Positions 6,307 through 63,676 of a stretch of DNA of 64,000 nucleotides are shown here, one piece after another. The DNA comes from Saprospiraceae bacterium. Its GTDB lineage: Bacteria > Bacteroidota > Bacteroidia > Chitinophagales > Saprospiraceae. The notes under the pieces are model-generated. The model saw nothing but the letters and a program-made list of their open reading frames with translations, made no database searches and was not told where the DNA came from. Where the stretch lies: assembly GCA_043758385.1 (NCBI GenBank), contig JAYVNP010000119.1, positions 151-64,150 on the forward strand, read 5' to 3'. Both the position numbers and the translations under genes were made by a program. The stretch's first letter is position 1. Each line of letters begins with the position of its first letter.

Positions 6307-6877
6307 TTAGATCTGTAAATTTAGCTAAAACAAATTGATCGTCTTTTTTATTTACAGTAATTCTTCTATTCGCGTCAATATGTACGTAAATAGTATCTTT
6401 TCCTGGTTTAAAAACTGGAATAAACTTGCCATAATCGTGCGCTAAAAGTTTTAAAACTTGTGGCATTAAAACTTTTGAATGATATCGCTCTGCATACGGG
6501 AAAAAAGATTCATAAGTGTAATACACAGGCATTTCTGTAATGTGATATTGCGCGTCAAACACCGGATAAAAATACATATACACCTTCGCGTCAGTTAATG
6601 TTGAATCAATTTTACGCAAAACTTGTACATTTAAACCGGCACCACTACCGTCTTCCGTTACACCTGCTTGATTGAGTTTGCGGCATTTATCGAAAAAATC
6701 TTTTTTGCTGTCGCCAAACTTTAATCCTAAAAAAATAGAATCAACCCGAATATTGCGCGCTTGTTCGCGTTTTACCATTTGCGCATATTCCGAATCTTGG
6801 CAACTTGAAAAGCAAAAAGCAAAGGGCAAAAAGCAAAATACAAAACACTGAAAAGTTAATCTGAAAGATTTCAACAC
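6293..6877 (-). CDS. Hypothetical lipoprotein
   Basis: Signal peptide ending FSSC; no recognisable domain. Confidence 0.5.
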   Translation of the reverse strand: MLKSFRLTFQCFVFCFLPFAFCFSSCQDSEYAQMVKREQARNIRVDSIFLGLKFGDSKKDFFDKCRKLNQAGVTEDGSGAGLNVQVLRKIDSTLTDAKVYMYFYPVFDAQYHITEMPVYYTYESFFPYAERYHSKVLMPQVLKLLAHDYGKFIPVFKPGKDTIYVHIDANRRITVNKKDDQFVLAKFTDLTVVK

Positions 6878-6976
6878 AAAAAAAGAAATTTTACGTTATC
6901 AAATGAATACTACTAAAAACACAAGGTATAATGGAAGGTTTACATTAACGCGTAAAAATAGCGAAAGTAAAATTCA

Positions 6977-7543
6977 ATGAAAAAAATAAGGACATTAAAA
7001 AAATATTTCGGTCATAAACTGATGGTATTTAGTTTTGGTTTACTCCTCTTTTCATCGCTCAGTTGCAATAAAAAAATTGTGGGTTTCGATATGTATTACA
7101 AACGCACGTATAATATTCCGGTCGGAATAAATCCGTTTGTTTCTACGGTTTGGAATTCCGACTACATCACACCGGATACGACAACTTTTTTTTCGGTGAA
7201 TGCATCGAGTAGTGCCAAGGTTTTAAAAGTTATTCCGAAAAGTATGCAACTGAGTTCTATTTACCCGAGCGGAAGCACAACGCTCGATAATTTAACGCGC
7301 GTTGAAGTTACTATTTTCGATCCTGCACGACCTACAGTACCGGCGCAAACTATTTTTTACCGCGATAACGTGCCCGCCAATACTGCTTACACTTTAGATT
7401 TACTCCCGAATGCCGTGGATGTTAAAGATTTAGTGATTTACAGCAAAAAATTTATCATTTCCATTTCTATTCAAGTCGCGCAACCGCCGCCGCGCACCAT
7501 CGAAACGCAGTTCAGCGTTTACTTTACGGCGCAAACGGAATAA
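6977..7543 (+). CDS. Hypothetical lipoprotein
   Basis: Signal peptide ending SLSC; no recognisable domain. Confidence 0.5.
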   Translation: MKKIRTLKKYFGHKLMVFSFGLLLFSSLSCNKKIVGFDMYYKRTYNIPVGINPFVSTVWNSDYITPDTTTFFSVNASSSAKVLKVIPKSMQLSSIYPSGSTTLDNLTRVEVTIFDPARPTVPAQTIFYRDNVPANTAYTLDLLPNAVDVKDLVIYSKKFIISISIQVAQPPPRTIETQFSVYFTAQTE

Positions 7544-10706: not shown

Positions 10707-13001
10707 ATGAAAAATAAACTTTTACTCTTTTTTTTAGTGTTTTCGATGACTCACAGCGCACAGCTCATGGGTCAGAGCGCGTCAAGCATCATTCGCGGAA
10801 CTATTTTAAATAAAAAAGATGGTCAGCCATTGGCGTATGCAACCGTTTATGTAGATGAACTTAAAAACGGAACGACATCAGACATCAATGGATTTTTTCA
10901 AATCTCAAATGTCGCCACAGGCGATTATAATTTAAAAATTAGTTTGGTCGGTTTTGAAAACATAGAAGCTAAAATTACCGTCGCAGCTTCGAGCATTTTT
11001 AATAAATTTTTTTTTTTAACCGAAGACGATAAGACGCTACAAACGGTAGAAATTTCGGGTAAAAAAGAATTGCGCCGATTAACGCCGCTTGTATCGCAGG
11101 TAACAATTTCGCCACAACAAATAAAAAATTTACCGTCGGTGGGTGGCGAACCCGATATAGCACAATACATTACAACGCTGCCGGGTGTTGTCAGTTCGGG
11201 CGATCAGGGCGGACAAATTTATATTCGCGGTGGTTCACCCGTTGAAAATAAAATCTTGCTCGATGGAATGCCGATTTACAATCCGTTTCACTCCATCGGT
11301 TTTTTTTCTGTTTTTGAAACTGAAGCGGTGCGTTCGGTGGATGTTTTCACCGGTGGATTTAACGCACAATACGGTGGCAGAATTTCATCAGTAATTGATG
11401 TTAAAATGCGCGAAGGCAATAAATCAAATTATTCGGGTTTGGCGAGCGTTTCACCGTTTCAAGCCAAAGCCATTTTGGAAGGACCGCTTTTAAAACTTCG
11501 CGAAGATGGTAACACAGCGATTTCTTTTTTAGTAACGGCTAAACATTCGCTTCTGCCACAAACGTCGCAAAATTTATACAAATACGCACTTAAAGATAGC
11601 GCAACGAGTTTGCCTTTTGCTTACGACGATTTTTACGGCAAAGTATCGCTTGTAGCTAAAGGTGGCAGCAAACTCAATATTTTTGGTTTTAATTTTTCGG
11701 ACGGTGTAAACTATCCGAATGTAGCAACGTTAAGTTGGAAAAATAACGGTTTTGGTTCAAACTTTACTTTGGTGCCTGCTACTTTAAACATGATTATTGA
11801 CGGTGCAATAACGTACTCGAATTATAATTTAAGTTTAAAAGAAGCTGCACCCGACCCGAGAACAAATGTGCTCAGTAATTTTACAGCTAAACTCGATTTC
11901 ACTGTTTTCGGAAATAATGGCGAACTGAAGTACGGTGCAGAATATAATGCTATTGGTACCGATTTAGCGTTTAAAAATCCGTTAGGTTTTTCTTTTTTGC
12001 AAAGCAATAATACGAATGAGCTTTCTGCTTATGCTAAATATTTATACCGTAGAGGAAGATTAGTGATTGAACCCGGCTTACGCGTTCAAAGTTATTCTGC
12101 ACTCGGTGAAACAACTTTTGAACCACGCATTGCCGTGAAATTAAATGCGAGCGACAATTTTAGGTTGAAATTTTCGGGTGGATTGTATTCTCAAAATTTA
12201 ATTTCAACCGTTAATTCAAACGATATTGTAAACCTGTTTGTTGGTTATTTAACCGGACCTGAGGAAAGTTTTAATAAACCTGGCACAAGCCAAACCGTTG
12301 ACACACGTTTACAGAAATCTTCGCAAATTGTTGGTGGTTTTGAAGCCGATTTAAATCCGAATCTTTCGCTCAACGTGGAGAGTTATTATAAAAATTATAA
12401 CCAACTGATTGATATAAACAGTTCTAAATCGAAAAATACAGAAGCTAATTATATTGCTGAAACGGGACAAGCCTACGGTACAGAATTTACACTGATCTAT
12501 AAATATGCGCGTTGGGATATAAATACCAATTATACACTCGCTTATGTTAATCGGTTCGATGGTACACAAACCTATCCAACCAATTTTGACAGGCGCAACA
12601 GCGTGAATGTAGTTTTAAACTATACTGCTGGTGCGCATAATGAATGGAATTTTTCAGCGCGCTTTAATTACGGCTCAGGCTTTCCTTTCACGCTCACTCA
12701 AGGTTTTTATACCAATTACACGCTCTCGAATGGCGTGAACACCGATGTTTTGCGTGGCAATCCCAGTCAAGGAATTATTTACTCTGCAACAAAAAATGAA
12801 GGTCGCTTACCCGATTTTCACCGTTTAGATGTTTCTATACGTAGAAATTTCAAATTTAGTAAATCGGCAGGTTTAGATATTGTCGCCTCTGTAACAAATG
12901 CTTACAACCGCAATAATATTTTTTACTTCGACCGCCTGACTTATAAACGCGTTGATCAATTGCCAATACTACCGGCGCTTTCTGCCACTTTCAGATTTTA
13001 A
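10707..13001 (+). CDS. TonB-dependent receptor with N-terminal carboxypeptidase-regulatory-like domain
   Basis: Signal peptide MKNKLLLFFLVFSM; CarboxypepD_reg pattern (GTILNKKDGQPLAYATVYV..TTSDINGFF); plug and barrel; C-terminal aromatic residue. The ORF-track start at 10620 reads through the repeat. Confidence 0.85.
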   Translation: MKNKLLLFFLVFSMTHSAQLMGQSASSIIRGTILNKKDGQPLAYATVYVDELKNGTTSDINGFFQISNVATGDYNLKISLVGFENIEAKITVAASSIFNKFFFLTEDDKTLQTVEISGKKELRRLTPLVSQVTISPQQIKNLPSVGGEPDIAQYITTLPGVVSSGDQGGQIYIRGGSPVENKILLDGMPIYNPFHSIGFFSVFETEAVRSVDVFTGGFNAQYGGRISSVIDVKMREGNKSNYSGLASVSPFQAKAILEGPLLKLREDGNTAISFLVTAKHSLLPQTSQNLYKYALKDSATSLPFAYDDFYGKVSLVAKGGSKLNIFGFNFSDGVNYPNVATLSWKNNGFGSNFTLVPATLNMIIDGAITYSNYNLSLKEAAPDPRTNVLSNFTAKLDFTVFGNNGELKYGAEYNAIGTDLAFKNPLGFSFLQSNNTNELSAYAKYLYRRGRLVIEPGLRVQSYSALGETTFEPRIAVKLNASDNFRLKFSGGLYSQNLISTVNSNDIVNLFVGYLTGPEESFNKPGTSQTVDTRLQKSSQIVGGFEADLNPNLSLNVESYYKNYNQLIDINSSKSKNTEANYIAETGQAYGTEFTLIYKYARWDINTNYTLAYVNRFDGTQTYPTNFDRRNSVNVVLNYTAGAHNEWNFSARFNYGSGFPFTLTQGFYTNYTLSNGVNTDVLRGNPSQGIIYSATKNEGRLPDFHRLDVSIRRNFKFSKSAGLDIVASVTNAYNRNNIFYFDRLTYKRVDQLPILPALSATFRF

Positions 13002-18674: not shown

Positions 18675-20021
18675 TTACTCTACTTTTAAAAATTTTTCAG
18701 TTTTAACAGCGATTTTATTTCGAATAGAAAACAAATAGACACCTACACTCAAATTTTCAATAGGTGTTTTAAAATTTTCAGTTTCTATTAAAAAACTTCC
18801 CGAATTATAAATTCGCCCATTTATATCTGTTATTTGCCAATAGGTATGGCTTTTAAAACTCCCAAAACAATTTAAAAATCCATCGTTAAGACAATTAGGT
18901 GAAATTTTAAAACTTAATGCCTCAATTTCGTTTGTAGGGGTCGTAGTATTACAAGTATTTACAGTGGCGACCACCCGTGCACGTAATTGGGGTAAATAGT
19001 TCCAAACCATTTCACCAGGGCAATCGGTTGCACAACCACTTCTATGTCCATCTATATTACTAACAATTGTTCCGCCGAGTAGAGCCGCACCATTCGGATT
19101 AATCTTTTCTTTTTTCGCTTTCCATGCTAAAATTTTAACCAAAGTTTGCAAGGCTGTATCGGTTGGTAAAACATCGTTGTAAGTGCCTATCATACAAACG
19201 CCCATTGTATGGGCATTTTTACCGCAATAATGCGCACCTACTACATTATCTCCACCACCACGACCAACAAATAAAGTTCCATCTGGAGCAACCAAATAAT
19301 TATACCCAATATCGCTCCAACCATTTGTATTCACATGATAATCGAAATAAGAGGCAACTACTGCTGCCCAATTTGGTGCTACATTGGGCGAAGAACCGTG
19401 ATGAACAATGAGATGTGTTACAGTAGTGTATTCGGGAATATTTTTATATTGAATGAGGTCATTCAGATTGTAGGATGCACCCCAAATACTTCTTGAGACT
19501 GCCTTTGGTGACGAACAATCGTCGCTTCCTCGAAATTGAGTTTGGTTATCTACAACGGAATTGCTCGCATTACCTGGAAAAAATAGGCGTAATTTAAGTT
19601 CATGTTTGGAAAAATCAATGCCCATATTACTTTCAATTTCTATAGTCAAATGACTGCTATTATTTTCAAGAAAAATAAGTTCAGATACATAATTCACATC
19701 ATCATCTACATCTTGCGCAGGTTTGATTTGAATGTATTGTGACACCGAAGAATTTAAAGTTTCAAGTTTTAATCGTACTGAATTAATTTCCTCTTTCTTA
19801 ATTCCATAAAATTTAAGAGAAAGTGCTACAAAAGGAGATACCCTTTGCGGTACAAAATTTATCAAAAAATTACTATTGAATATTAGTTTTTCACCTGATT
19901 GTGTCACACTTCTTTTTGAGATATTACCATCATTTAACCGAAACTCTTGCGCTGATTGTGCAGTCATGAATAGCGATTGAAAAATTAATAAGTACAAACT
20001 GAACAGGAATTTATTCATCAT
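18675..20021 (-). CDS. Secreted N-acetylmuramoyl-L-alanine amidase (Amidase_2/PGRP fold) with T9SS type A C-terminal domain
   Basis: HLIVHH..WSDIGYNYLV..GAHYCGKN..DGHRSGCATDCPG zinc-amidase pattern; C-terminal VGVYLFSIRNK..KFLKVE sorting domain. Confidence 0.75.
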   Translation of the reverse strand: MMNKFLFSLYLLIFQSLFMTAQSAQEFRLNDGNISKRSVTQSGEKLIFNSNFLINFVPQRVSPFVALSLKFYGIKKEEINSVRLKLETLNSSVSQYIQIKPAQDVDDDVNYVSELIFLENNSSHLTIEIESNMGIDFSKHELKLRLFFPGNASNSVVDNQTQFRGSDDCSSPKAVSRSIWGASYNLNDLIQYKNIPEYTTVTHLIVHHGSSPNVAPNWAAVVASYFDYHVNTNGWSDIGYNYLVAPDGTLFVGRGGGDNVVGAHYCGKNAHTMGVCMIGTYNDVLPTDTALQTLVKILAWKAKKEKINPNGAALLGGTIVSNIDGHRSGCATDCPGEMVWNYLPQLRARVVATVNTCNTTTPTNEIEALSFKISPNCLNDGFLNCFGSFKSHTYWQITDINGRIYNSGSFLIETENFKTPIENLSVGVYLFSIRNKIAVKTEKFLKVE

Positions 20022-20071
20022 TTCAAATTTGATACTAAGATAAACTTTTAAACTCTATTTTAATTGTGAAA

Positions 20072-20109
20072 ACAAAAAAGCCATCAAACAAATGCGCTTG
20101 ATGGCTTTT
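20072..20109 (-). terminator. Rho-independent terminator
   Basis: On the minus strand: aaagccatcaa-loop-ttgatggcttt followed by a T-run. Confidence 0.65.
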
Positions 20110-20186
20110 AATAAAAGAGAACCAACCAAAAATGTATGAAAAAACTTAACTTAGTGCAAAATTAAACTTTGAGAACATCTTCAACG

Positions 20187-21131
20187 TTACCCCAATATTA
20201 ACTTTATAGTTAAGACAGTTTGTCGCGCAATCGTAAACTTCTGATAACTCGGTTGCGCGCCTTTGCGCTGAATACTCACCACATATTCACCTGTTTGCCA
20301 CGCTTGCGTATTAATTTCAAACTTGCCCTCACCTTGTGCTGTGAATTTTGTGACGTACAAAGTTTGTCCCGACAAAGTATTAAACCCGACGGTGAGTTCT
20401 GTGGCTTGCTCGTAATTGTAATGCAGATACAAAACATCATCGGAGGGATTGGGTGCAAAGCGAATGGAATTATTACCCAATGCCGCGTTTTGCGCTTGCG
20501 CTTGCGCAATACTATCTTGCAATCGCTGCGCTTCGGTACGATTTTGCACCGCTAATTGCTGAATATCCGGCACAAGAATTTTGGGTTGTGCAATGGCTAC
20601 TTTTGACGGCAGCATCGCGCCGATTTTGTTACCCGTTGTGTTGCGCACCGTGAAAACAGGTATTGTAATTTCACTTTTGCGTGCGCCTTCTTTAATTTCT
20701 ATTTTGTCGCGGTCGTCGCTCAGGTGAATAAACACTACTGCTTTTGCACCCTTTTTTTGCGCACTCACTGCCATGTCTGTTGCATCTGTGCATTTTCCCA
20801 TGTCAATCACCGCCACTTTACCTGCTACATCGCCACTAATTTGCGCACAACCGTGCGTTACTTTTAGCTGTTTGTAGCTGTTGCGTTGTTTGCAACTGTC
20901 GCACGTTTTGGCAGTCCACGTGTGGAGTGTATCAACACCTAAAACCATTTCGCCCAGAAATGCACCTTTGCTAAAAAGTGTTTTAACATCTGCGCCAAAA
21001 CCTGCGGGTGCAATGCGGTATTTTGCGCCTGTGTTAAAAACAGAGAGCATAATGGTGTCGTACCGCGCTGTTTGAGCGCGCATTTGTAATGTAGTTGCAA
21101 CTACATAAATTAAAATTATGTATTTTCTCAT
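20187..21131 (-). CDS. Secreted PA (protease-associated) domain protein with T9SS-type C-terminal domain
   Basis: Signal peptide; GKVAVIDMGKC..AQKKGAKAVVFIH PA-domain pattern; C-terminal RFAPNPSDDVLYLHY..GEYVVSIQ beta-sandwich. Confidence 0.6.
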   Translation of the reverse strand: MRKYIILIYVVATTLQMRAQTARYDTIMLSVFNTGAKYRIAPAGFGADVKTLFSKGAFLGEMVLGVDTLHTWTAKTCDSCKQRNSYKQLKVTHGCAQISGDVAGKVAVIDMGKCTDATDMAVSAQKKGAKAVVFIHLSDDRDKIEIKEGARKSEITIPVFTVRNTTGNKIGAMLPSKVAIAQPKILVPDIQQLAVQNRTEAQRLQDSIAQAQAQNAALGNNSIRFAPNPSDDVLYLHYNYEQATELTVGFNTLSGQTLYVTKFTAQGEGKFEINTQAWQTGEYVVSIQRKGAQPSYQKFTIARQTVLTIKLILG

Positions 21132-21171
21132 TGTTTAATTATTAAAAATTTTCAAGAAAGCAAATTTTGTT

Positions 21172-21441
21172 TTAGAAGTTCTGTGCACTGATCTTTTTTT
21201 ACCCTTTCATTTGGATCTAAAAAAATTTTAGAACCTCTTCTTCATCTCTATCTCAATCGATTAAGTAAATTTCAAGCTAACCTGAAGACCATATATCAAA
21301 GCCGCCATCTTTACTATTACCTTTAAATTCGTTTCGATCTAAATCACCAAAGTCTCCATCCTTAAAAGATCTAAATTCTATTTCAAATCCTTTTGATTTA
21401 AACTGCTTGAAAAAACTCTTAACCCATAAAAAATCTTTCAT
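21172..21441 (-). pseudogene. Decayed small gene (immunity-like) with four in-frame stops
   Basis: Own translation: MKDFLWVKSFF..GGFDIWSSG*LEIYLID*DRDEEEVLKFF*IQMKG*. The first two stops (TAG, TGA) sit where TGG/Trp would fit. Confidence 0.3.
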
Positions 21442-21449
21442 ATTTACGA

Positions 21450-21806
21450 TTATGATAAAGCAACATTTTCTGAAGGAACTAAAATAAAATAGTGTGTTGG
21501 AGTTTCTCCTTTGTGATACTCCGCTATATACTTTCTTGATTCATAGGCACTTCTCCTTACAAAGGCATTAAGGTCTTCGTTTAGTCCCTTATCATTGAAC
21601 CAACTATCATATGTTAGAACCAATTTGCCCTTAATCAAGGTACAAACATCTCCCCCTAATATAGGTGAACCAAGCATTTCAAGTTTCGAAATAGCATCAT
21701 AAGCTTGTTCTTCTTTTAAGCCCCAGTTATTTATTCCAATAGTATCTAATGGAATCCCAACAGATAAAATCTCTAAAATTTTAGTACTCCAAATAAAAGA
21801 ATTCAT
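21450..21806 (-). CDS. Putative polymorphic-toxin immunity protein (GGD-motif type)
   Basis: 118 aa, cytoplasmic. Starts 7 nt after the toxin-like fragment. WG..EE..A...L..LG.PILGGDV pattern resembles immunity families; not verified by search. Confidence 0.4.
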   Translation of the reverse strand: MNSFIWSTKILEILSVGIPLDTIGINNWGLKEEQAYDAISKLEMLGSPILGGDVCTLIKGKLVLTYDSWFNDKGLNEDLNAFVRRSAYESRKYIAEYHKGETPTHYFILVPSENVALS

Positions 21807-37758: not shown

Positions 37759-37875
37759 TCGAAATACAAAAATCAACCCACGAAAAATTCTTTTTCCTTG
37801 TATTTAAAACTAATTCAACTTTGCAAGTGTTTGACTAGCGTCTTTTCTTTTTGTTTATACATAAAAATACTTTTA

Positions 37876-39687
37876 ATGAAAAATTTGTACTTTCTATTAT
37901 TTGCAATGATTTTAGGTTTTAACTTAACTTCGATGCAAGCGCAGCGCAAAGACGCGCGCGTTTTATTTGTAGCGAATTTAGACGGTTCGCAAGAAGTCCC
38001 TGCCGTTAACACAAAAGCAAAAGGTTTAATAACCGTTATGCTGGAAGAAGATGGCAAATTAACTATTAATGGTGTTTTCGATAGTTTATCGAGTGTTGCA
38101 ACGCTTTGTCATTTTCATTTAGGCGATTCAAAAACGGCTGGAAAAGTTATTTACGATTTAACATCGGGAATAAAAAACGGCAATAGCATCTATTTTAAAA
38201 CGCCCACGCGCGTACCTGATAGTTTAATCTCGGGCATTTTAAATGCTGGTGTTTATTTAAACGTGCACACTGCCGCTAATCCGGGCGGCGAAATTCGCGG
38301 TATTCCGATAGTAGAAAGCGATTCGCATTACACAGCATTTTTGAGTGCAGCGAGTGAAGTACCGACAAACGCATCGAAAGGTTTTGGTTTACTTTCTATG
38401 GTGGTTTCAAAAAATTTAATGACCGTTGAGGTGAAAGCTGTTCTGTATGGCTTAACGGGTGCCATTGCAGCTTCACATCTTCATTTCGGTGCAACAGGTG
38501 TAAACGGTTCCGTTAATGTGCCACTCACTTATTCAGGTAATGTAATTTCTGGTACTTACACCGTTACACAACCTTTTATTGATAGTTTATCGGCAGGAAA
38601 AATTTATATGAACGTGCATACTGCTACTTATCCGGGCGGTGAAATTCGCGGACAAGTCACGCCGATTGCAGCTAACACAATCGGTTTTGATGCGCTGTTA
38701 GAAGGAGCAAACGAAATACCTGCTGTAATATCCGATGCAAAAGGTGTTTTAGTGGGTACGTTAAACGCTACACTCGATACGCTTTCGTACTCCGTTTTAT
38801 ATGCAGGCTTAACGCCTCTTTACGGACACATTCACGACGGTACGAAAGATTCAGCAGGTGCTGTAATCAATAATTTTGTCGCCGATGCTAACTATACAAA
38901 TATCTATCGCGGTACTTTTCCGCTGACTTTAGCGCAACGTTTGCGGTTAGTTAAAGGCAGCAATTACGCTAATATCCATTCAAGTGCAAATCCAGGTGGT
39001 GAAATTAGAGGACAGGTTTACTCAAGTATTCGCGAAGGTTTAGTATCAAATTTGTGTGCAGGTCAAGAGCCAACAACGAATACATCAAAAGCGGTTGGTG
39101 CAGCAGCAATTTCAGTTAACCGACTAAAAACAGATCTTTCGGTTAATTTAGTCACTACAGGTTTAACAGGTAATATAATAGTGTCGCATATTCACAAAGG
39201 TGCAATTGGTGTTAACGGCGCGGTATATGTACCGTTTGTAGTCAATTCAAACAACACCGTTAAAGGTGTCTACACGCTCTCAACTCCAGGTGGTGGCGAC
39301 TCGATTATTAACGGACAGACGTACGTGAATGTACATACTGCTGCCAACGGCGGCGGTGAAATTCGCGGTCAGGTGGATAAAGTTTTGAACACAACTTGTT
39401 TAACAACTGGTACTTTTGAGCTTAATGGAAAACAATTTACTGTTACTGTTGCGCCCAATCCATCACAAGATATTGTAAACATTACTTTCGATGCCAATTT
39501 GGATATTGCTACACAATTAACGGTGAGTGATATTGCTGGCAGAACTGTAATTTCTAAAAAGGTAGAAATTTTAAACGGTGTTAATCAAATTGGATTAAAA
39601 GTTTCTGATTTAGTGAACGGTATTTATTTCATTCAACTCAAGAACAATAATGAAATACTATTTACCGAAAAATTAATTAAGAACTAA
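37876..39687 (+). CDS. Secreted protein with four CHRD domains and a T9SS type A C-terminal domain
   Basis: NVHT..NPGGEIRG signature occurs four times; C-terminal VAPNPSQD..NGIYFIQLK sorting domain. ATG at 37876 preferred. Confidence 0.8.
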   Translation: MKNLYFLLFAMILGFNLTSMQAQRKDARVLFVANLDGSQEVPAVNTKAKGLITVMLEEDGKLTINGVFDSLSSVATLCHFHLGDSKTAGKVIYDLTSGIKNGNSIYFKTPTRVPDSLISGILNAGVYLNVHTAANPGGEIRGIPIVESDSHYTAFLSAASEVPTNASKGFGLLSMVVSKNLMTVEVKAVLYGLTGAIAASHLHFGATGVNGSVNVPLTYSGNVISGTYTVTQPFIDSLSAGKIYMNVHTATYPGGEIRGQVTPIAANTIGFDALLEGANEIPAVISDAKGVLVGTLNATLDTLSYSVLYAGLTPLYGHIHDGTKDSAGAVINNFVADANYTNIYRGTFPLTLAQRLRLVKGSNYANIHSSANPGGEIRGQVYSSIREGLVSNLCAGQEPTTNTSKAVGAAAISVNRLKTDLSVNLVTTGLTGNIIVSHIHKGAIGVNGAVYVPFVVNSNNTVKGVYTLSTPGGGDSIINGQTYVNVHTAANGGGEIRGQVDKVLNTTCLTTGTFELNGKQFTVTVAPNPSQDIVNITFDANLDIATQLTVSDIAGRTVISKKVEILNGVNQIGLKVSDLVNGIYFIQLKNNNEILFTEKLIKN

Positions 39688-39731: not shown

Positions 39732-39768
39732 AACGGCGTAGATTTTTAAAAATCTACGCCGTTTTTTG
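39732..39768 (+). terminator. Rho-independent terminator
   Basis: aacggcgtagattttt / aaaaatctacgccgtt perfect 16-bp stem followed by a T-run. Confidence 0.8.
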
Positions 39769-50665: not shown

Positions 50666-50717
50666 CGAAAATCAAAATAGTAACGGCTCAAAAATGAATC
50701 ATTACTATTTTGATTTT
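50664..50717 (+). terminator. 16-bp-stem hairpin after coaD that runs into a T-rich hexamer tract
   Basis: aaaatcaaaatagtaa (50668-83) pairs with ttactattttgatttt (50702-17). Confidence 0.55.
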
Positions 50718-50843
50718 GATTTTCGTTTTGATTTTCGTTTTGATTTTCGTTTTCGTTTTCGTTTTCGTTTTGATTTTCGTTTTGATTTTCGTTTTGATTT
50801 TCGTTTTGATTTTGATTTTCGTTTTGATTTTCGTTTTGATTTT
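50712..50843. repeat. 22 uninterrupted hexamers drawn from only two words, GATTTT and CGTTTT (11 each)
   Basis: Order read directly: D D C D C D C C C C D C D C D C D D C D C D, where D=GATTTT and C=CGTTTT. Followed by attacttcttc-type repeats to 50880. Confidence 0.95.
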
Positions 50844-50888
50844 ATTACTTCTTCATTACTTACTTCTTCATTACTTCATTTATAAAAT

Positions 50889-57572: not shown

Positions 57573-59795
57573 ATGGTCAACGAAGATTATTTACATTGTA
57601 GTGCTTATGAAGGTCATGCTCTACATCCAACGGAAGCTAATTTTACCGCTTTTTTACACGAGGAAAGCAAACTAAATTTTTTCGCGCTATTAGATGCCGA
57701 TGGCGCAGTTCTTTTAAAAAGTGAGGGCTATCCACAAGAAGCATCGCGCGAAAACGGCATCCAATCGGTTATAAAAAACCGCTCTAACCGCGATTTCTAT
57801 TCTGTTAAAGAATTAGAAGGTGAGTATTATTTAAGTTTACGCGCAGCCAATTATCGCGAAATTGCGCGTACTTGTCGCCACAAAACAGAAGCTGAAGCTT
57901 TGGCACTTCTTCCTTTTGTTACAGGTCAACAAATTCGTAAGAAGGTTGTCACTGAAACTGTTGCTGTTGCAACAACAACTGCTACGCACACAAATGACCG
58001 TCGTGAAGACGATTATTTAGCTTGTCATTTTTATGAAAATCAACCATCTGTCAATCATGAAGACGGAATGGTAAAATTCACACACACTAACGAAGAACAT
58101 TATTTTGCTTGGTACGACGAAAATAATCAGTTATTAATGCGCTCAGAAGGCTATCCGTCAACTGCTGCGCGCGATAATGGTTATGCATCAGTTTTAAAAA
58201 ATCGCGATTTAGAAGAGCGTTATGCTATTGAAGAGAAAATGGGTTATTACTTTGCATATTTAAAAGCAGGTAATCATCAAGAAATTGCACGTGGCTGCGG
58301 AAAGAAAACTTACGAAGAAGCTGCTGCTTTATATCCGAGTGCGCGCGCTGAAGCAAAACGCAAAGCGACTATTGTGGTGGCTACGCCAATTGTAGAAGCT
58401 CCTAAAGTTTCTGTTCCAATAATTGAAGTTCCGAAGGTCTCTGTACCAACACCAACGGTAGAAATTCCAAAAATTTCTGTACCTATTGTAGAAGCACCAA
58501 AATTAGAAGTTCCAGTTATTGCCGCTGCTGTCGTCGCTTCAATTCCTCACGTTGAATTACCAAAAGTGGAAATTCCGCACGTAGAAGTTCCGCATATCGA
58601 ATTACCTAAAGTTGAAGTTCCGCACATTGAAGTTCCTCATGTTGAAGTACCAGTTGTTGCGGCTACAATTGCTGCCGTTGCTGCTACTGTACCTCATATC
58701 GAATTACCTAAAGTGGAAGTTCCTCATGTTGAAGTACCAGTTGTTGCGGCTACAGTTGCTGCCGTTGCTGCTACTATACCTCATATCGAATTACCTAAAG
58801 TGGAAGTCCCTCACGTGGAATTACCAAAATTGGAAGCTCCTCATGTAGAAGTACCGCATTTGGAATTGCCTAAGGTAGAAGTACCTCATGTTTCAATTCC
58901 TGCGGTTGCACTTGCTGGCGCTGCGGTCGCTGCTGCGATTCCTCATGTAGAGATTCCGAAGGTGGAGATTCCGAAGGTGGAGATTCCAAAAGTGGAGATT
59001 CCAAAAGTAACTGTTGAAGTTCCGAAAGTAGAAGTACCAAAAATTGTTGTTGAAGCACCTAAAGTGGAAGTCAAAAAAGTTGTTGCTGCTGCTGCAGTTA
59101 CAGCTGCCGCTGTTGCTGTAACGCATATCCCGCACAAAAAAGAGGAAGTCAAAAAAGTTGTTACACCCGTAGCACCCATTGTTGAAACACCCATTGTTGA
59201 AGAGAAAAGTTGGCTTTCTAAATATTGGTGGTTGCCACTTCTTTTACTCTTAGGTCTTGGATTTTTATTGCTCAGAGGTTGCAATTCAGATACAACAACA
59301 GCAACTGTTACGCCACCTATTCCGGTAGAAACGCCTAAACCAGTTGTTTCGGAAGCACCAAAAGTTGCAGAGGTACCAAAAGTTGTTGCGCCTTCTTGCG
59401 ATTTACACTGGATCTATTTCGATTACAATAAATCTGACCTTCGTGCTGAGTCGAAAAAAGAACTCGACCACTTAGCAGATTTGTTGAAAGAAAATAAAGG
59501 TTCGGTTGCGGTGTTAAAAGGTTTCACGGATAGTAAAGGCGATGTTGCTTACAACGATGCACTTTCTAAACGTCGCGCCAATGCAGCGCGCGCTTATTTA
59601 ACGGGTTCAAAGAAAATTTCTGACGCACAAATTAAAGAAGATGCTTCCGGAAAAAGCGCACCCGTAGCGAAAAATACAGATGACGATTCAGGACGTAAGT
59701 ACAATCGTCGTGTAGAATTGTACATTCAAGATGCCACAGGAAAAAATATCTGTCAATCTATTGAGTTGACTATTCCGACAACTTTAAAGGAATAA
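57573..59795 (+). CDS. Multidomain protein: 2x YegP/DUF1508-like modules, long P-[HK]-[VI]-E-x pentapeptide repeat region, one TM helix, C-terminal OmpA-like peptidoglycan-binding domain
   Basis: LLKSEGYPQEASRENGIQSVIKN..YYLSLRAANYREIA and LLMRSEGYPSTAARDNGYASVLKN..YFAYLKAGNHQEIA; repeats such as PHVEVPHIELPKVEVPHIEVPHVE; TM segment YWWLPLLLLLGLGFLLL; OmpA motif GFTDSKGD..YN..LS..RA..NRRVEL. Confidence 0.8.
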   Translation: MVNEDYLHCSAYEGHALHPTEANFTAFLHEESKLNFFALLDADGAVLLKSEGYPQEASRENGIQSVIKNRSNRDFYSVKELEGEYYLSLRAANYREIARTCRHKTEAEALALLPFVTGQQIRKKVVTETVAVATTTATHTNDRREDDYLACHFYENQPSVNHEDGMVKFTHTNEEHYFAWYDENNQLLMRSEGYPSTAARDNGYASVLKNRDLEERYAIEEKMGYYFAYLKAGNHQEIARGCGKKTYEEAAALYPSARAEAKRKATIVVATPIVEAPKVSVPIIEVPKVSVPTPTVEIPKISVPIVEAPKLEVPVIAAAVVASIPHVELPKVEIPHVEVPHIELPKVEVPHIEVPHVEVPVVAATIAAVAATVPHIELPKVEVPHVEVPVVAATVAAVAATIPHIELPKVEVPHVELPKLEAPHVEVPHLELPKVEVPHVSIPAVALAGAAVAAAIPHVEIPKVEIPKVEIPKVEIPKVTVEVPKVEVPKIVVEAPKVEVKKVVAAAAVTAAAVAVTHIPHKKEEVKKVVTPVAPIVETPIVEEKSWLSKYWWLPLLLLLGLGFLLLRGCNSDTTTATVTPPIPVETPKPVVSEAPKVAEVPKVVAPSCDLHWIYFDYNKSDLRAESKKELDHLADLLKENKGSVAVLKGFTDSKGDVAYNDALSKRRANAARAYLTGSKKISDAQIKEDASGKSAPVAKNTDDDSGRKYNRRVELYIQDATGKNICQSIELTIPTTLKE
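58629..58802. repeat. 87-bp tandem duplication (2 copies, 3 mismatches) inside the repeat region of the OmpA-domain gene
   Basis: Copy 1 is 58629-58715 and copy 2 is 58716-58802; each encodes EVPHVEVPVVAAT[IV]AAVAAT[VI]PHIELPKV. Confidence 0.9.
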
Positions 59796-59867: not shown

Positions 59868-60050
59868 CGGGTATTAAAAAAAATGTAAGGGAAAAATAAT
59901 TAGCAGTATTTTTTTGAATTGCCGATTGTGCCAATTGAAAGCAAAGTGAGGTGCTTGTTAATGCGCAACAAAATTTTAAAAAATTCAATTGGAAGATTCA
60001 ATTTGTTTAATTGTCCAAAAAGACTTAACTTTACTAAGAAAATACATTGT

Positions 60051-60284
60051 ATGAATCCTTTGTTGAATAGAATTACTATCAATCCTGAAATTTGTCATGG
60101 CAAACCAACGGTGCGTAATATGCGCTACCCAGTGGAAATGATTTTGGATTTGATGTCATCGGGCATGACACAACAAGAAATTCTCGAAGATTACCCGGCT
60201 TTGCAAACTGAAGATTTATTGGCATGTCTTTCTTATGCGTCGAGGCTAACTAAGGTAAAATCAATAAATAAAGTTTTAGTATGA
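60051..60284 (+). CDS. DUF433-family antitoxin-like protein
   Basis: INPEICHGKPTVRNMRYPVEMILDLMSSGMTQQEILEDYPALQTEDLLACLSYA. ATG at 60051 preferred. Confidence 0.8.
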   Translation: MNPLLNRITINPEICHGKPTVRNMRYPVEMILDLMSSGMTQQEILEDYPALQTEDLLACLSYASRLTKVKSINKVLV

Positions 60285-60634
60285 AATTCTTGATAGACGC
60301 ACAGTTGCCTTATGGTTTGAAGAAATTCTTATCGTTAAAAGGCTATGATGTAATTCATACCGATAATCTACCCAATAAAGAACGGACTACAGACAACGAA
60401 ATAAAAGATTTATCACTTGCAGAGAATCGCATAGTCATTTCCAAAGATTCTGATTTTATCGATTCATTCTATGTACGAGGTGTTCCTCGAAAGCTACTCA
60501 TCATTTCAACTGGCAATATCAAAAATAGGGATTTATTCACCTTGTTTGAAAACAACATGCAGCATATTACCGAACTATTTTCTCACAATAATCTTTTAGA
60601 AATGGATAATTTTGAGATTATTGTACACGAATGA
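60281..60634 (+). CDS. DUF5615-family PIN-like toxin (Mut7-C-like)
   Basis: MKFLIDAQLP..G.DV.H......TD.EI...A..ENRIVISKDSDF; ATGA 4-nt overlap with the DUF433 gene. Confidence 0.8.
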   Translation: MKFLIDAQLPYGLKKFLSLKGYDVIHTDNLPNKERTTDNEIKDLSLAENRIVISKDSDFIDSFYVRGVPRKLLIISTGNIKNRDLFTLFENNMQHITELFSHNNLLEMDNFEIIVHE

Positions 60635-60691
60635 CACAATTAATCAATGAATAAAGCTGTATATGGAACACTCTTAAAGTACATACAAACT

Positions 60692-60726
60692 AAAAAAGCC
60701 GTTGCACTTGTTCAGTGAAACGGCTT
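60692..60726 (-). terminator. Rho-independent terminator closing the caspase/FGE operon
   Basis: On the minus strand: aagccgtt-loop-aacggctt followed by tttttt. Confidence 0.65.
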
Positions 60727-60819
60727 AGTATATGTAGTTGGCAGCCACCTACTTTTCCGATGTGCAGAACAAAACCCGCTTTATTATTGCTAAAAGTTAA
60801 GTCGTACTGACAAAGCATT

Positions 60820-61608
60820 TCACTGGGAGTCAAAAACCACGCGGAAGCCTATATCGTTATCGCAATTCGTAGGCGCGCTGTAATGGCGATAAGCGACACG
60901 GCAGTGCCGCGGAAAGTTGTTCCAACCTCCACCGCGAAGAATACGGCTCGAGCCGCTTGAAGGCCCTGTTGAATTGTCTGCCTCTACCGGTGAGTCTGAA
61001 TAATCGCCGTACCAATCGCTGCACCATTCCCAAACATTGCCACTCATATCGTAAATATCCAATTCATTGGCAGTTCTCGTACCAACTTCGTGGGTCTTGC
61101 ATAAGGAATTACCAAAGTACCAGCTAACCTCATCTGCATTATTACTGCCGCTGTACTTGTAACTCCCGCTTTTAACACCACCTCTTGCAGCATACTCCCA
61201 TTCCGCTTCTGTGGGTAAACGGAATTTTGTGTCGGTTTTTTTCGTCAGCCATACACAGTATGCCACTGCATCGTTCCAAGAAACTCCGACAATTGGCAAT
61301 TTCACGTTTCCTAGACGTTTGTAACCTCTGCTTTTGTAGTATTCATTTGTTCCTGTCTTTATATTATATTCGTTTCCTTTCTCAAGCCAAAGCGGAAAAT
61401 GTGTTTTTGTACTATTGACAAACTGCAAGTATTGTTCTACTGTCACTTCAAATTTGCCGATGTTAAAATCGTTTAGAATGACTTCATGTGTAGGTTTCTC
61501 ATGTTCAAAACAATCGCTGCGTTGTTCATTTGTACAGCCCATTTTAAATGTGCCGCCTTGTACGAAAATCGTTTCCGGATTTAAATCAAATTTTGTTTGT
61601 GCAATCAT
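60820..61608 (-). CDS. FGE-sulfatase/SUMF1-domain protein, cassette 1 (cytoplasmic, probably non-catalytic)
   Basis: MGCT..EKP.H.V....F.I.K.EVT; LPTEAEWEYAARGG; YDMSGNVWEWC.DW; LRGGGW; GFRVV. No signal peptide. Confidence 0.8.
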   Translation of the reverse strand: MIAQTKFDLNPETIFVQGGTFKMGCTNEQRSDCFEHEKPTHEVILNDFNIGKFEVTVEQYLQFVNSTKTHFPLWLEKGNEYNIKTGTNEYYKSRGYKRLGNVKLPIVGVSWNDAVAYCVWLTKKTDTKFRLPTEAEWEYAARGGVKSGSYKYSGSNNADEVSWYFGNSLCKTHEVGTRTANELDIYDMSGNVWEWCSDWYGDYSDSPVEADNSTGPSSGSSRILRGGGWNNFPRHCRVAYRHYSAPTNCDNDIGFRVVFDSQ

Positions 61609-61614
61609 GGCATT

Positions 61615-61803
61615 TTATTGACTGAAAATTATAAAATCGCCGCCGAATTGGTGGCTGGAATCTTGCAATAAATTAATCTCGGCTTACTACCTCAAATTGC
61701 AACATACGTTCTTAGTTACATATATTTGCAGTTCTGTGGCAGCTATTACACTCTTATTCAAAAATTGTCGAAGAATGTGCAATATAAAACGCACATCTTT
61801 TTT
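61615..61803 (-). pseudogene. Decayed copy of the last 62 codons of the caspase gene
   Basis: Own translation KKDVRFILHILRQFLNKSVIAATELQIYVTKNVCCNLR**AEINLLQDSSHQFGGDFIIFSQ*. It aligns with the tail of the 62544..63326 gene (..KKETNSPFAASILRHLKNLNENAIAATKLKVLMSDDVDYNFRHTVKIEVLKDWNHQLGGDFIFYKQ*). Confidence 0.55.
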
Positions 61804-61834
61804 GCTCAAAGTTAAGCCAGACTGACAAGCCTTC

Positions 61835-62536
61835 TCATTGAAGAGAAATAACCACGCGGAAGCCTATATAGGTATTACGATTCGTAGGCGTGTTGAAATT
61901 GAGACCAACGACACGGCAGCCCCTCGAATCGTCACCCCAACTTCCACCGCGAAGAACATGGCTCGAGCCGCTTGAAGGCCCTGTTGGATTATTTGTCGGT
62001 GAGACTGAATCAACCCCGTCAAACCAATCGCTGCACCACTCCCAAATATTGCCGCTCATATCGTAAATGCCCAGTTCATTGGCTTTTTTTGCGCCAACTT
62101 CGTGCGTCTCACCTCCAGAATTGTCTTTGTTCCAAGCAACCTCATTAAGTATGTTGCTGCCGCTATACTCGTAATTTTTGCTTTTATCACCACCTTTCGC
62201 AGCATATTTCCATTCCGCTTCTGTGGGTAAACGGTATTTTTTGCCGGTTTTTGAATTAAGTTTCTTTAAATAAGTTTGAACATTTTCCCAACTGACTCGT
62301 TCAACTGGCAATTTATCGCCTTTAAATTGAGAAGGATTTGAGCCCATAACACTTTGCCATTCATCTTGTGTCACTTCATATTTGCTGATGTTAAAATCGC
62401 TTAAGGTAACTTTATGGGCGGGTTTTTCATCCTCGCTACAATCGCTGCTTTGTTCACTTGTGCAGCCCATTGTAAAGGTGCCACCTTTTACGAAAATCAT
62501 TTCGGGCTCAAAATCAAATTTTGTTGGTGGAATCAT
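61835..62536 (-). CDS. FGE-sulfatase/SUMF1-domain protein, cassette 2
   Basis: Same motifs as cassette 1 (LPTEAEWKYAAKGG, YDMSGNIWEWCSDW, LRGGSW, GFRVV). ATG at 62536 (MIPPTKFDF) parallels MIAQTKFDL of cassette 1; the track's GTG at 62572 overlaps the caspase tail. Confidence 0.8.
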   Translation of the reverse strand: MIPPTKFDFEPEMIFVKGGTFTMGCTSEQSSDCSEDEKPAHKVTLSDFNISKYEVTQDEWQSVMGSNPSQFKGDKLPVERVSWENVQTYLKKLNSKTGKKYRLPTEAEWKYAAKGGDKSKNYEYSGSNILNEVAWNKDNSGGETHEVGAKKANELGIYDMSGNIWEWCSDWFDGVDSVSPTNNPTGPSSGSSHVLRGGSWGDDSRGCRVVGLNFNTPTNRNTYIGFRVVISLQ

Positions 62537-62543
62537 GATAGTT

Positions 62544-63326
62544 TTATTGTTTATAAAATATAAAATCGCCACCTAATTGGTGGTTCCAATCTTTCAATAC
62601 TTCAATCTTGACTGTGTGCCTAAAATTGTAATCCACGTCATCGCTCATCAATACTTTCAATTTGGTCGCCGCGATGGCATTCTCGTTCAGATTTTTCAGG
62701 TGTCGCAAAATACTCGCCGCAAACGGACTATTAGTTTCTTTTTTTCCTTTGTCCGCTACTTCACCAAATCAGGAGCAAAAAATTTGGCGTGATCTATTGA
62801 GTTTATTCTGTTCCAATGTATAATTTGCCTTATTATTTTCACTCAGCATCAATAAGGATCCGCCGAAACAACAATCACAAACCAACAATATATGTTTGGG
62901 CTTGGAAATGGATTGAATGATGTCGCGCAATTCTTCGTTGCGAATCAAACTGGTACTACTGTCTTTTTTGCCGCCGTAAGGAATCAAAAATCCTTTAGTC
63001 CAGTCATTATCATCGGGTTTGCCGTGTCCTGCAAAATAAATTAGCAATTTATCGTTTTCCGTCAATAATGCATTTTTTCTAAGTGCTCTCAATCCGTCAA
63101 TAATCGCCGTTCTTGTCGCTTGGTGATTAGCTAAAATGCCTAAGCTTTCATAATCAAAATCAGCCGCTAAACAATTGTAGATGTCGTTCACGTCTTTCAC
63201 AGCATTTTGCAAATGCCTGAACTCTGGATAAGTGTCTATCCCGATACCAAAAAAGTAATTTTTACCTTTCGGACTATTCATTTCTGCTGTTTGTTTTTCG
63301 TAACCAATTGCGCGATTGTCGGACAT
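62544..63326 (-). pseudogene. Caspase-fold (peptidase C14, orthocaspase-like) gene interrupted by one in-frame TGA at 62769-62771
   Basis: Catalytic His (IYFAGHG) and Cys (LVCDCCFGGS). After ..SRQIFCS* the same frame continues for 74 codons with the family-typical SPF..L..L and GDF.F ending. Confidence 0.75.
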
Positions 63327-63676
63327 AAAGCGGAGTGCTTTTTAACGTTCAACAAAAATATTAAAATAAATTGTATTTTTCAATTTATTTTATTTGATTT
63401 TCAGAATGGGGTCAACTTTTATTTGATTTTTAAAACAAAATTTGCTGATGACACAATTATAGCTGTGAGCGAAAGATTTGGGAAAAGCAATTGGGAGACG
63501 CATGCAATGCGTCTGTACGAGGGTGAGAAACGCGCGAGCGTAAATTTCATAAAAAAGGTATCACATTGCATTTTAAATAATAAAACTTTTACTTACGCAA
63601 AAATGATTGTTATATTGTAATATTAGATATTATTCAGAAAACATTTTAGGTTTTTGAATTCTGATTTACTTTGTGA

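Follow-up and report, generated by a model that had tools for sequence, protein, structure and literature searches.

The contig JAYVNP010000119.1 of a Saprospiraceae bacterium (64,155 nt) carries an array in which a gene for a caspase-like protease is followed by two genes, FGE2 and FGE1, for proteins of the formylglycine-generating enzyme (FGE) fold. We analyzed this array within a stretch of 64,000 nt of the contig (positions 151 to 64,150, hereafter the window), and judged by its sequence it appears to resemble known sensor-protease systems in every testable feature. On the minus strand the order is the caspase gene, FGE2, a flank of about 70 nt, a decayed copy of the caspase tail, FGE1, a second flank of about 70 nt and a terminator (Table 1). 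The ATG of FGE2 lies 7 nt past the TAA of the caspase gene, with a change of frame between the two open reading frames (ORFs), and FGE1 starts 6 nt past the decayed caspase tail. The two FGE ORFs, the decayed tail and both gaps were found as an initial annotation of this DNA had described them, and the hairpin with a T-run that it had noticed after FGE1 was likewise recovered as an intrinsic terminator.

The array is built from a repeat unit of about 1,015 nt, which also takes in the ~70 nt located 3' of each FGE stop codon, and the FGE1 and FGE2 copies show 76-80% DNA identity across the repeated blocks. A conserved fold or hairpin was looked for in the duplicated ~70-nt flank and none was found. 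The decayed tail is the caspase end of a second caspase-FGE unit, and the equivalent layout is intact in two related loci described below (L185 and L187). This second unit may have arisen by tandem duplication of a segment of about 1 kb; alternatively, a second caspase gene was possibly present and has mostly been lost. As the same stop-7 nt-ATG junction is common to both units, the split between protease and FGE gene is older than the duplication, which is itself old. Matches to the Bacteroidetes -7 promoter motif TAnnTTTG (two, at 63360 and 61814) were about as many as expected by chance and were not used.

Table 1. Features of the caspase-FGE array and its immediate flanks, in window coordinates.
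Feature	Position	Strand	Basis or remark
Caspase-like gene (Peptidase_C14 / orthocaspase)	63326..62544	minus	260 codons; profile searches, alignment
Premature in-frame TGA in caspase gene	62769-62771	minus	codon 186; alignment A3
FGE2, short-subtype FGE-fold ORF, 233 aa	62536..61835	minus	Pfam, PDB sequence match, AlphaFold2 model/Foldseek
Variable-region-like patch of FGE2, codons 185-229 (TGPSSGSS...IGFRVV)	61850..61984	minus	
Decayed caspase 3' end with internal stops (...ILRQFLNKSVIAATELQIYV..HQFGGDFIIFSQ*)	61615..61805	minus	
FGE1, long-subtype FGE-fold ORF, 262 aa	61608..60820	minus	Pfam, segment identities, alignment
Variable-region-like patch of FGE1, codons 214-258	60835..60969	minus	
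Duplicated ~70-nt 3' flank	60750..60819 (FGE1 copy), 61765-61834 (FGE2 copy)	minus	part of repeat unit
Intrinsic terminator, 12-bp interrupted stem then UUUUUU (U6)	60690..60726	minus	minimum free energy -17.3 kcal/mol, z = -3.3
DUF433 antitoxin-like + DUF5615/PIN-like toxin pair	59919..60634	plus	convergent with array
Insertion sequence transposase 5' end (HTH_Tnp_4), cut by window/contig end	63677..64000	plus	

The caspase ORF matched Pfam Peptidase_C14 (PF00656, E 2.2e-13) and the PADLOC caspase model (4.7e-17). Its catalytic dyad is kept, with H101 in YFAGHG and C153 in DCCFGG both located in invariant columns of the subfamily alignment (A3), in line with the caspase fold and the two residues first proposed. 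The gene had also been described as split. It is neither split into cistrons nor frameshifted; instead, one in-frame TGA at codon 186 interrupts the frame through the caspase domain, and the called ORF has 185 aa only. The affected column, G186 of the SG motif (...CS-G-R..EV.DG), is invariant in eight homologues, and the TGA is consistent with a single-base change of GGA to TGA. Recoding of TGA, either by code 4/25 or as selenocysteine, was considered and rejected, since TGA ends 6 of the 28 long ORFs in the window as well as both FGE genes, and the codon stands in place of a Gly and not of a Cys. TGA being a normal stop in this genome, codon 186 is best read as a nonsense mutation. The truncation recurs in L001, an independent Logan assembly of SRR22198274 with 100% identity across 4,675 nt. 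Because the nonsense codon falls at an invariant Gly of the protease gene, the module is most likely inactive in this strain at present.

Both FGE proteins matched Pfam FGE-sulfatase (PF03781) over the full length (FGE2, E 2.3e-53; FGE1, E 2e-59), and both are free-standing and lack a signal peptide, as had been described. The family is abundant in Bacteroidia, with more than 7,700 matches at E < 1e-20 that are typically 60-67% identical. The full-length Pfam matches, database names such as 'formylglycine-generating enzyme family protein' and a template modelling (TM) score of about 0.74 between a model of FGE2 and both human and bacterial FGE could be taken to mean that the ORFs encode true formylglycine-generating or redox enzymes (SUMF1, EgtB or PvdO type), with a sulfatase or a small molecule as substrate and the caspase gene as a coincidental neighbour. 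We find this hardly credible. Catalytic FGEs are recognized by a copper-binding Cys pair (human C336/C341), and in the alignment FGE1 and FGE2 keep only the equivalent of C341, the position of C336 being occupied by Gly in FGE2 and by Asn in FGE1, so that the pair is absent from both. The best PDB sequence match of FGE2 was TvpA (2Y3C, E 6.5e-36), the variable protein of a diversity-generating retroelement (DGR), far better than PvdO (3e-23) or human FGE (6.5e-22). This was further supported by structure prediction, which had been proposed at the outset as a check, since the AlphaFold2 model of FGE2 (pLDDT 82) had TvpA as its top Foldseek match (TM 0.80, rmsd 2.6 Å). No sulfatase was seen among the top families of the 43 other window proteins and scanned neighbours, and the region that would hold the active site is the hypervariable part of the protein.

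The enzymatic reading is also at odds with the recurrent fusion of this domain to caspases, kinases and TIR domains. Members of the family often form the C-terminal part of proteins with signalling or effector domains: among 44 N-extended FGE relatives we found six with Pkinase, four with Peptidase_C14 and four with PEGA, and TIR-FGE fusions are present as well. The consensus of the family profile is undefined exactly at the variable positions of the C-terminal RGG..GFR segment. With one catalytic Cys missing, and with a DGR variable protein as the closest match in both sequence and structure, the reading of FGE1 and FGE2 as non-catalytic binding modules of the C-type-lectin subtype is supported by the sequences and the predicted model; the initial annotation had come to a ligand-binding role from the single Cys, which proved correct.

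The pairing of this protease with an FGE protein was then evaluated in relatives. A word-indexed search with the caspase retrieved eight similar proteins only, and profile-guided scans then reached FGE fusions of its subfamily. In two Saprospiraceae metagenome-assembled genomes the caspase subfamily is fused to FGE, as a 560-aa protein in L031 and as a 787-aa protein with a transmembrane segment between the domains in L022, and caspase-FGE fusions were also found in the metagenome loci L098 and L132. A lectin-fold domain, Fib_succ_major, is fused to the caspase subfamily in L091 and adjacent to it in L006. Most telling is a related species (L170), in which the syntenic site after the OmpA gene is occupied by one fused caspase-linker-FGE gene of 595 aa (19699-21486, minus strand), and the contig ends about 360 nt upstream of it. 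The flanking aldehyde dehydrogenase (Aldedh) and FtsQ-like proteins are 94% identical to those of the window and MurG is 88% identical, whereas the fused gene shows only 36% (caspase), 52% (FGE2) and 40% (FGE1) identity and no detectable DNA similarity, which makes the site a fast-turnover hotspot. The other relatives that share Aldedh (L178-L184) are not syntenic past RibA and are hence uninformative for this locus.

The closest long-contig homologue of FGE1 (P0135, 56% identical) sits in an alternating array in L185 (3499-17171) and L187 (4576-18248), with the order C14-FGE(long)-C14-FGE(short)-C14 followed by a WD40 gene and by a third, 5'-truncated FGE gene on the opposite strand. All five translated proteins (C14a-c, FGEa and FGEb) carry a signal peptide. 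The coupling of caspase and sensor, initially proposed from the window and from known fusions, is thus borne out by the four fusions, by the syntenic gene of L170 and by the L185/L187 arrays, and that the two proteins belong together functionally is supported by this comparison of sequences. In the comparison across relatives that had been suggested, the variation between strains lies in the C-terminal patch described below and not in whole cassettes.

Three further observations concern these loci. In L109 (2992-4254) a 272-aa caspase and an FGE domain stand in one frame with a single TAA between them and no start codon for the FGE part, another interrupted fusion. L097 (5225-10778) has three tandem caspase paralogues of the same subfamily with different C-terminal extensions (478, 686 and 667 aa). 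Upstream of the fusion in L022, short overlapping ORFs (6528-7040) are built of 'GFTDYDDYGFRLRIYGF' repeats.

FGE1 and FGE2 had been called near-identical at their ends, with a 27-mer shared between positions 60945 and 61960 as an example. The match is exact, and a 22-mer that forms part of it occurs only at these two places, a result reached by 0 of 100 shuffles, but at 76-80% the genes are not near-identical. The 27-mer belongs to the last 45 codons, where the nucleotide framework (CTTCGCGGTGGA...TGCCGTGTC...CCTACGAAT...ATAGGCTTCCGCGTGGTT) is nearly identical in both genes and also includes an exact 18-mer. Within this patch the genes differ at 26 positions; third codon positions account for 2 of these differences, and codon positions 1-2 for the other 24. 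The proportion of synonymous differences (pS) is 0.09 and that of nonsynonymous differences (pN) 0.23, compared to a pS of 0.37-0.64 at similar pN elsewhere. In the patch the third base is retained in 17 of the 19 amino-acid-changing codons; for the remainder of the gene the count is 36 of 77 (47-58% elsewhere; p = 7e-4). The codon alignment thereby supported the suggested diversifying recognition module and moved it: the patch lies at the C-terminal end and not in the middle third, where it had been expected.

A comparison with relatives that carry a complete DGR gives this pattern a context. In L021 a kinase-FGE target is accompanied by an HRDC gene, a reverse transcriptase (RT) and a template repeat. 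L025 (5076-10690) holds a canonical DGR (HRDC, RT and a template repeat at 7359-7493) with two 240-aa FGE targets; the RT cassette and a gene for an LRR-Roc-COR GTPase lie between the targets, and 15 of the 16 differences between the two variable regions are at template adenines. The patch of the window matches the real variable regions of L021 and L025 in size (~135-144 nt) and position, and its variable codons coincide with the AAC/AAT (AAY) codons of their template repeats. In L022 the remnant of a DGR HRDC accessory gene, 34 aa in length, stands at 10945-11160, directly after the caspase-transmembrane-FGE fusion. The 3' ends of the three L185 FGE paralogues are about 90% identical and differ at the variable codons, a pattern clearer than in the window, and between the L185 and L187 strains, which are 98% identical, mismatches concentrate in the three FGE patches and the second caspase gene; no template repeat was found in the 17-18 kb of sequence of these two loci. 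When FGE homologues were clustered at 90% identity, three of six clusters varied almost only in RGG..GFR (14/27, 15/18 and 15/17 of the variable positions); the heterogeneous clusters are P0135, P0123 and P0062.

Because the patch keeps its framework but differs at the codons that DGRs mutate, we see roughly an even chance that a single template repeat outside this contig served to write the patches of both FGE1 and FGE2. That the recognition surface is diversifying, by whatever route, is supported by the codon pattern. Use of one FGE copy as the template for the other could be ruled out, as the mismatches are not unidirectional at adenines. A weak match (E 0.2) that looked like a remnant of an HRDC accessory gene 3' of the FGE genes proved to be the decayed caspase tail.

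The same pattern could in part be produced by ordinary tandem paralogues, shaped by gene conversion and by positive selection on binding-site residues, in a lineage that never had a DGR. Low dS also marks the 5' end and codons 46-60 of the FGE pair, where a DGR is not invocable, the patch pN/pS of about 2.5 depends on only three synonymous changes, three of the six homologue clusters are without patch variation, and neither an RT nor a template repeat is present on the contig. Selection alone, however, does not predict that the third base is kept in nearly all changed codons, nor the agreement in size and position with the variable regions of L021 and L025. The far clearer occurrence of the same pattern among the three L185 paralogues and between L185 and L187, and the fact that among solved structures the nearest relative is the variable protein of a DGR, also speak against it. 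We consider such a purely paralogous origin less likely than not, though it is the alternative to be taken most seriously.

Several points weigh against a retroelement-diversified sensor coupled to a protease. No RT, HRDC/Avd gene or template repeat was found within the 64-kb window by a repeat finder, an A-bias self-BLAST, mismatch-tolerant patterns and tblastn with the RT and HRDC proteins of L021 and L025, although the same template-repeat scan did recover the repeats in L021 and L025; a third copy of the patch framework or an A-biased repeat was likewise absent from the window. Two of the patch differences are at third positions, and four to five variable codons are not A-bearing in the template repeats of the relatives. 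The adenine depletion of the framework is significant (p = 1.5e-5) but largely due to conserved amino acids, and was down-weighted. In a collection of 15 billion proteins FGE1 and FGE2 were represented by one sequence each, with no variants of them or of the caspase. Gene conversion clearly acts in the 5' patch of the unit, and conversion together with selection could mimic part of the footprint. Finally, pairing with FGE was seen in a minority of relatives (3 of 80 caspase loci and 5 of 80 FGE loci).

The remaining parts of FGE1 and FGE2 tell of a long separate history. Their cores are 63% identical at the protein level, while the identity to homologues in other orders is 63-68%, and the core pS is 0.56-0.8. 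The two genes are, by these sequence distances, old paralogues, and the split arrangement is therefore old and no recent accident. The extra segment of FGE1 (THFPLWLEKGNEYNIKTG...), first described as an insertion, marks a long FGE subtype that is also found in L022, in FGEa of L185 and in true FGEs, while FGE2 is of the common short subtype. The middle segment of FGE1 is 60% identical to the Saprospiraceae fusion in L022 and 19% identical to FGE2, and in L185, too, a long paralogue is paired with a short one and their ends are similar. On this comparison the long subtype is ancestral and the "insertion" no novelty, and the diverged middles are read as mosaic evolution between paralogues and not as cassette exchange.

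Exchange of sensor cassettes by recombination beside the protease, as in systems with silent and expressed cassettes, had been proposed for the window. The idea draws on the tandem layout, which includes the duplicated upstream junction, and on the mosaic of similar ends with middles of two FGE subtypes, repeated in FGEa and FGEb of L185. It did not withstand closer inspection and is in our view very improbable. The array holds just two copies, each a complete ORF with a start codon of its own, and lacks promoterless silent copies or any other silent-cassette layout; no site-specific recombinase or invertible element was found; the copies are old (core dS 0.56-0.8) and only patchily homogenized; the syntenic site of L170 holds only one gene, a fused one; and the strain-level variation of relatives lies in the C-terminal patch.

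Taken together, our results make it probable, if by no means certain, that the locus belongs to the modules, known from many bacteria, that combine a caspase with an FGE/C-type-lectin sensor, and that in this case the module has been split, duplicated in tandem and has partly decayed. By analogy with the family, the cytoplasmic FGE-fold proteins would bind a ligand via a hypervariable face at the C-terminus that corresponds to the variable region of TvpA, and the bound ligand would lead to recruitment or activation of the caspase-like protease, whose gene lies directly upstream. The protease might then cleave cellular or effector substrates, and this could lead to growth arrest, cell death or signalling. 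As to its history, an already split caspase-FGE unit may have duplicated long ago, leaving a second unit with only the decayed 3' end of its caspase, and the two sensors would have come to carry different middles, those of the long and the short subtype.

The pairing as such cannot be claimed as novel, since systems of this kind have been described. Fusions of metacaspases or orthocaspases to FGE-sulfatase domains are documented (PMC5756287, PMC4933709), for example MaOC4 of Microcystis aeruginosa. Kaur et al. 2020 (PMC7159879) and Dore et al. 2024 (PMC10907252) describe conflict systems in which DGR-diversified lectin sensors of the FGE type accompany peptidases resembling caspase or trypsin, and fusions of FGE sensors to proteases are mentioned in a preprint from 2025 that deals with protease-activated effectors (PMC12642450). 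Fusions of the MaOC4 type have the same domains in the same order, caspase N-terminal and FGE C-terminal. In the window, by contrast, the domains are separate cistrons, the linker of 85-130 aa is missing, there are two sensor genes and the protease gene has a premature stop. TvpA of Treponema denticola shares the FGE-type C-type lectin fold of FGE2 and has its variable residues in a C-terminal RGGSW...C.R...P...GFR, but it is a lipoprotein and comes with its own template repeat and RT, whereas FGE1 and FGE2 have neither a signal peptide nor these two elements on the contig.

With the DGR-based conflict systems the window shares the logic of a hypervariable presumed sensor and a peptidase effector, an FGE domain that is always C-terminal and multiple targets per locus. 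These systems are mostly built on MoxR-vWA-VMAP, STAND NTPases or effector-associated (EAD) adaptor domains in multicellular cyanobacteria, actinobacteria and others, and the window would be a minimal two-component version in Bacteroidota; no MoxR AAA+ ATPase, vWA, VMAP/iSTAND, STAND NTPase or EAD component was found among the window protein families. The L185 and L187 arrays are split and tandem as in the window, with a long and a short FGE gene that have near-identical 3' frameworks. Their proteins are extracytoplasmic, with signal peptides and extra N-terminal domains, and their caspases are of another C14 subfamily, while the window proteins are cytoplasmic; furthermore, they keep intact units where the window has a decayed 3' remnant. 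The window thus stands outside the fusion family because it is split, outside catalytic FGEs because one Cys is missing and outside the MoxR-vWA ternary systems because their components are absent; its status as a DGR target is unproven, no template or RT having been found.

If the mechanism proposed above holds, the locus represents a minimal two-component form of sensor-protease conflict modules that have so far mainly been known as large fusions or ternary systems in multicellular bacteria, and would allow the sensor to be investigated apart from the protease, each as a small protein. What may be more useful than this broken copy are the data from relatives (the fused gene of L170, the alternating arrays and the patch-confined strain variation); together they indicate many such modules in Bacteroidota, for which the database label 'formylglycine-generating enzyme family protein' is misleading. 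A bolder picture is that free-standing cytoplasmic FGE/C-type-lectin sensors owe their diversity to a retroelement that acts in trans from another place in the genome, and that they dock non-covalently on a minimal caspase. Tandem (caspase-FGE)n arrays in Bacteroidota would then provide an abortive-infection protease with a small set of receptors under constant rewriting, and the chromosomal site would be a hotspot whose content changes from one sister species to the next. We put this forward as speculation and hold it to be rather unlikely.

The array lies in a small variable spot of a housekeeping region and not in a defence island. The flanking genes are MurG, an FtsQ-like gene, RibA, an aldehyde dehydrogenase gene and a gene for an OmpA/DUF1508 repeat protein, and type IX secretion system sorting domains encoded in the window point to a Bacteroidota genome. 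The defence-island-like setting initially suggested is therefore not upheld by these neighbours, although the two elements on which it was based are real, a type II toxin-antitoxin pair (DUF433 + DUF5615) and the N-terminus of an insertion sequence (IS) transposase. The toxin-antitoxin pair, with the OmpA gene on one side and the FGE array on the other, is missing at the L170 site and may thus have been inserted at, or lost from, the same hotspot. The IS lies about 350 nt upstream of the caspase start, and the contig ends within it, about 700 nt upstream of the caspase gene, so that the transposase end hides whatever stands upstream of the caspase gene.

Repeats were observed in several other parts of the window. 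The OmpA-family protein (57573-59795, plus strand) carries a pair of DUF1508 domains at its N-terminus and an extended series of 15-nt repeats (VEVPK/IELPK-type, ~58390-59100), and the contigs of several related strains (L171-L176) break within this gene. Upstream of the aldehyde dehydrogenase gene, an intergenic 12-nt tandem repeat (GATTTTCGTTTT, ~16 copies) is located at 50683-50880, with a related 27-mer at 39766, and an ORF at 37798-39687 (plus strand) contains four internal repeats of about 355 nt, each with a CHRD domain (GGEIRGQ motif). At a different variable spot, L178 (15635-17173) and L182 (15739-17277), which share the Aldedh-RibA block, encode on the minus strand a 512-aa protein with an EAD11 effector-associated domain.

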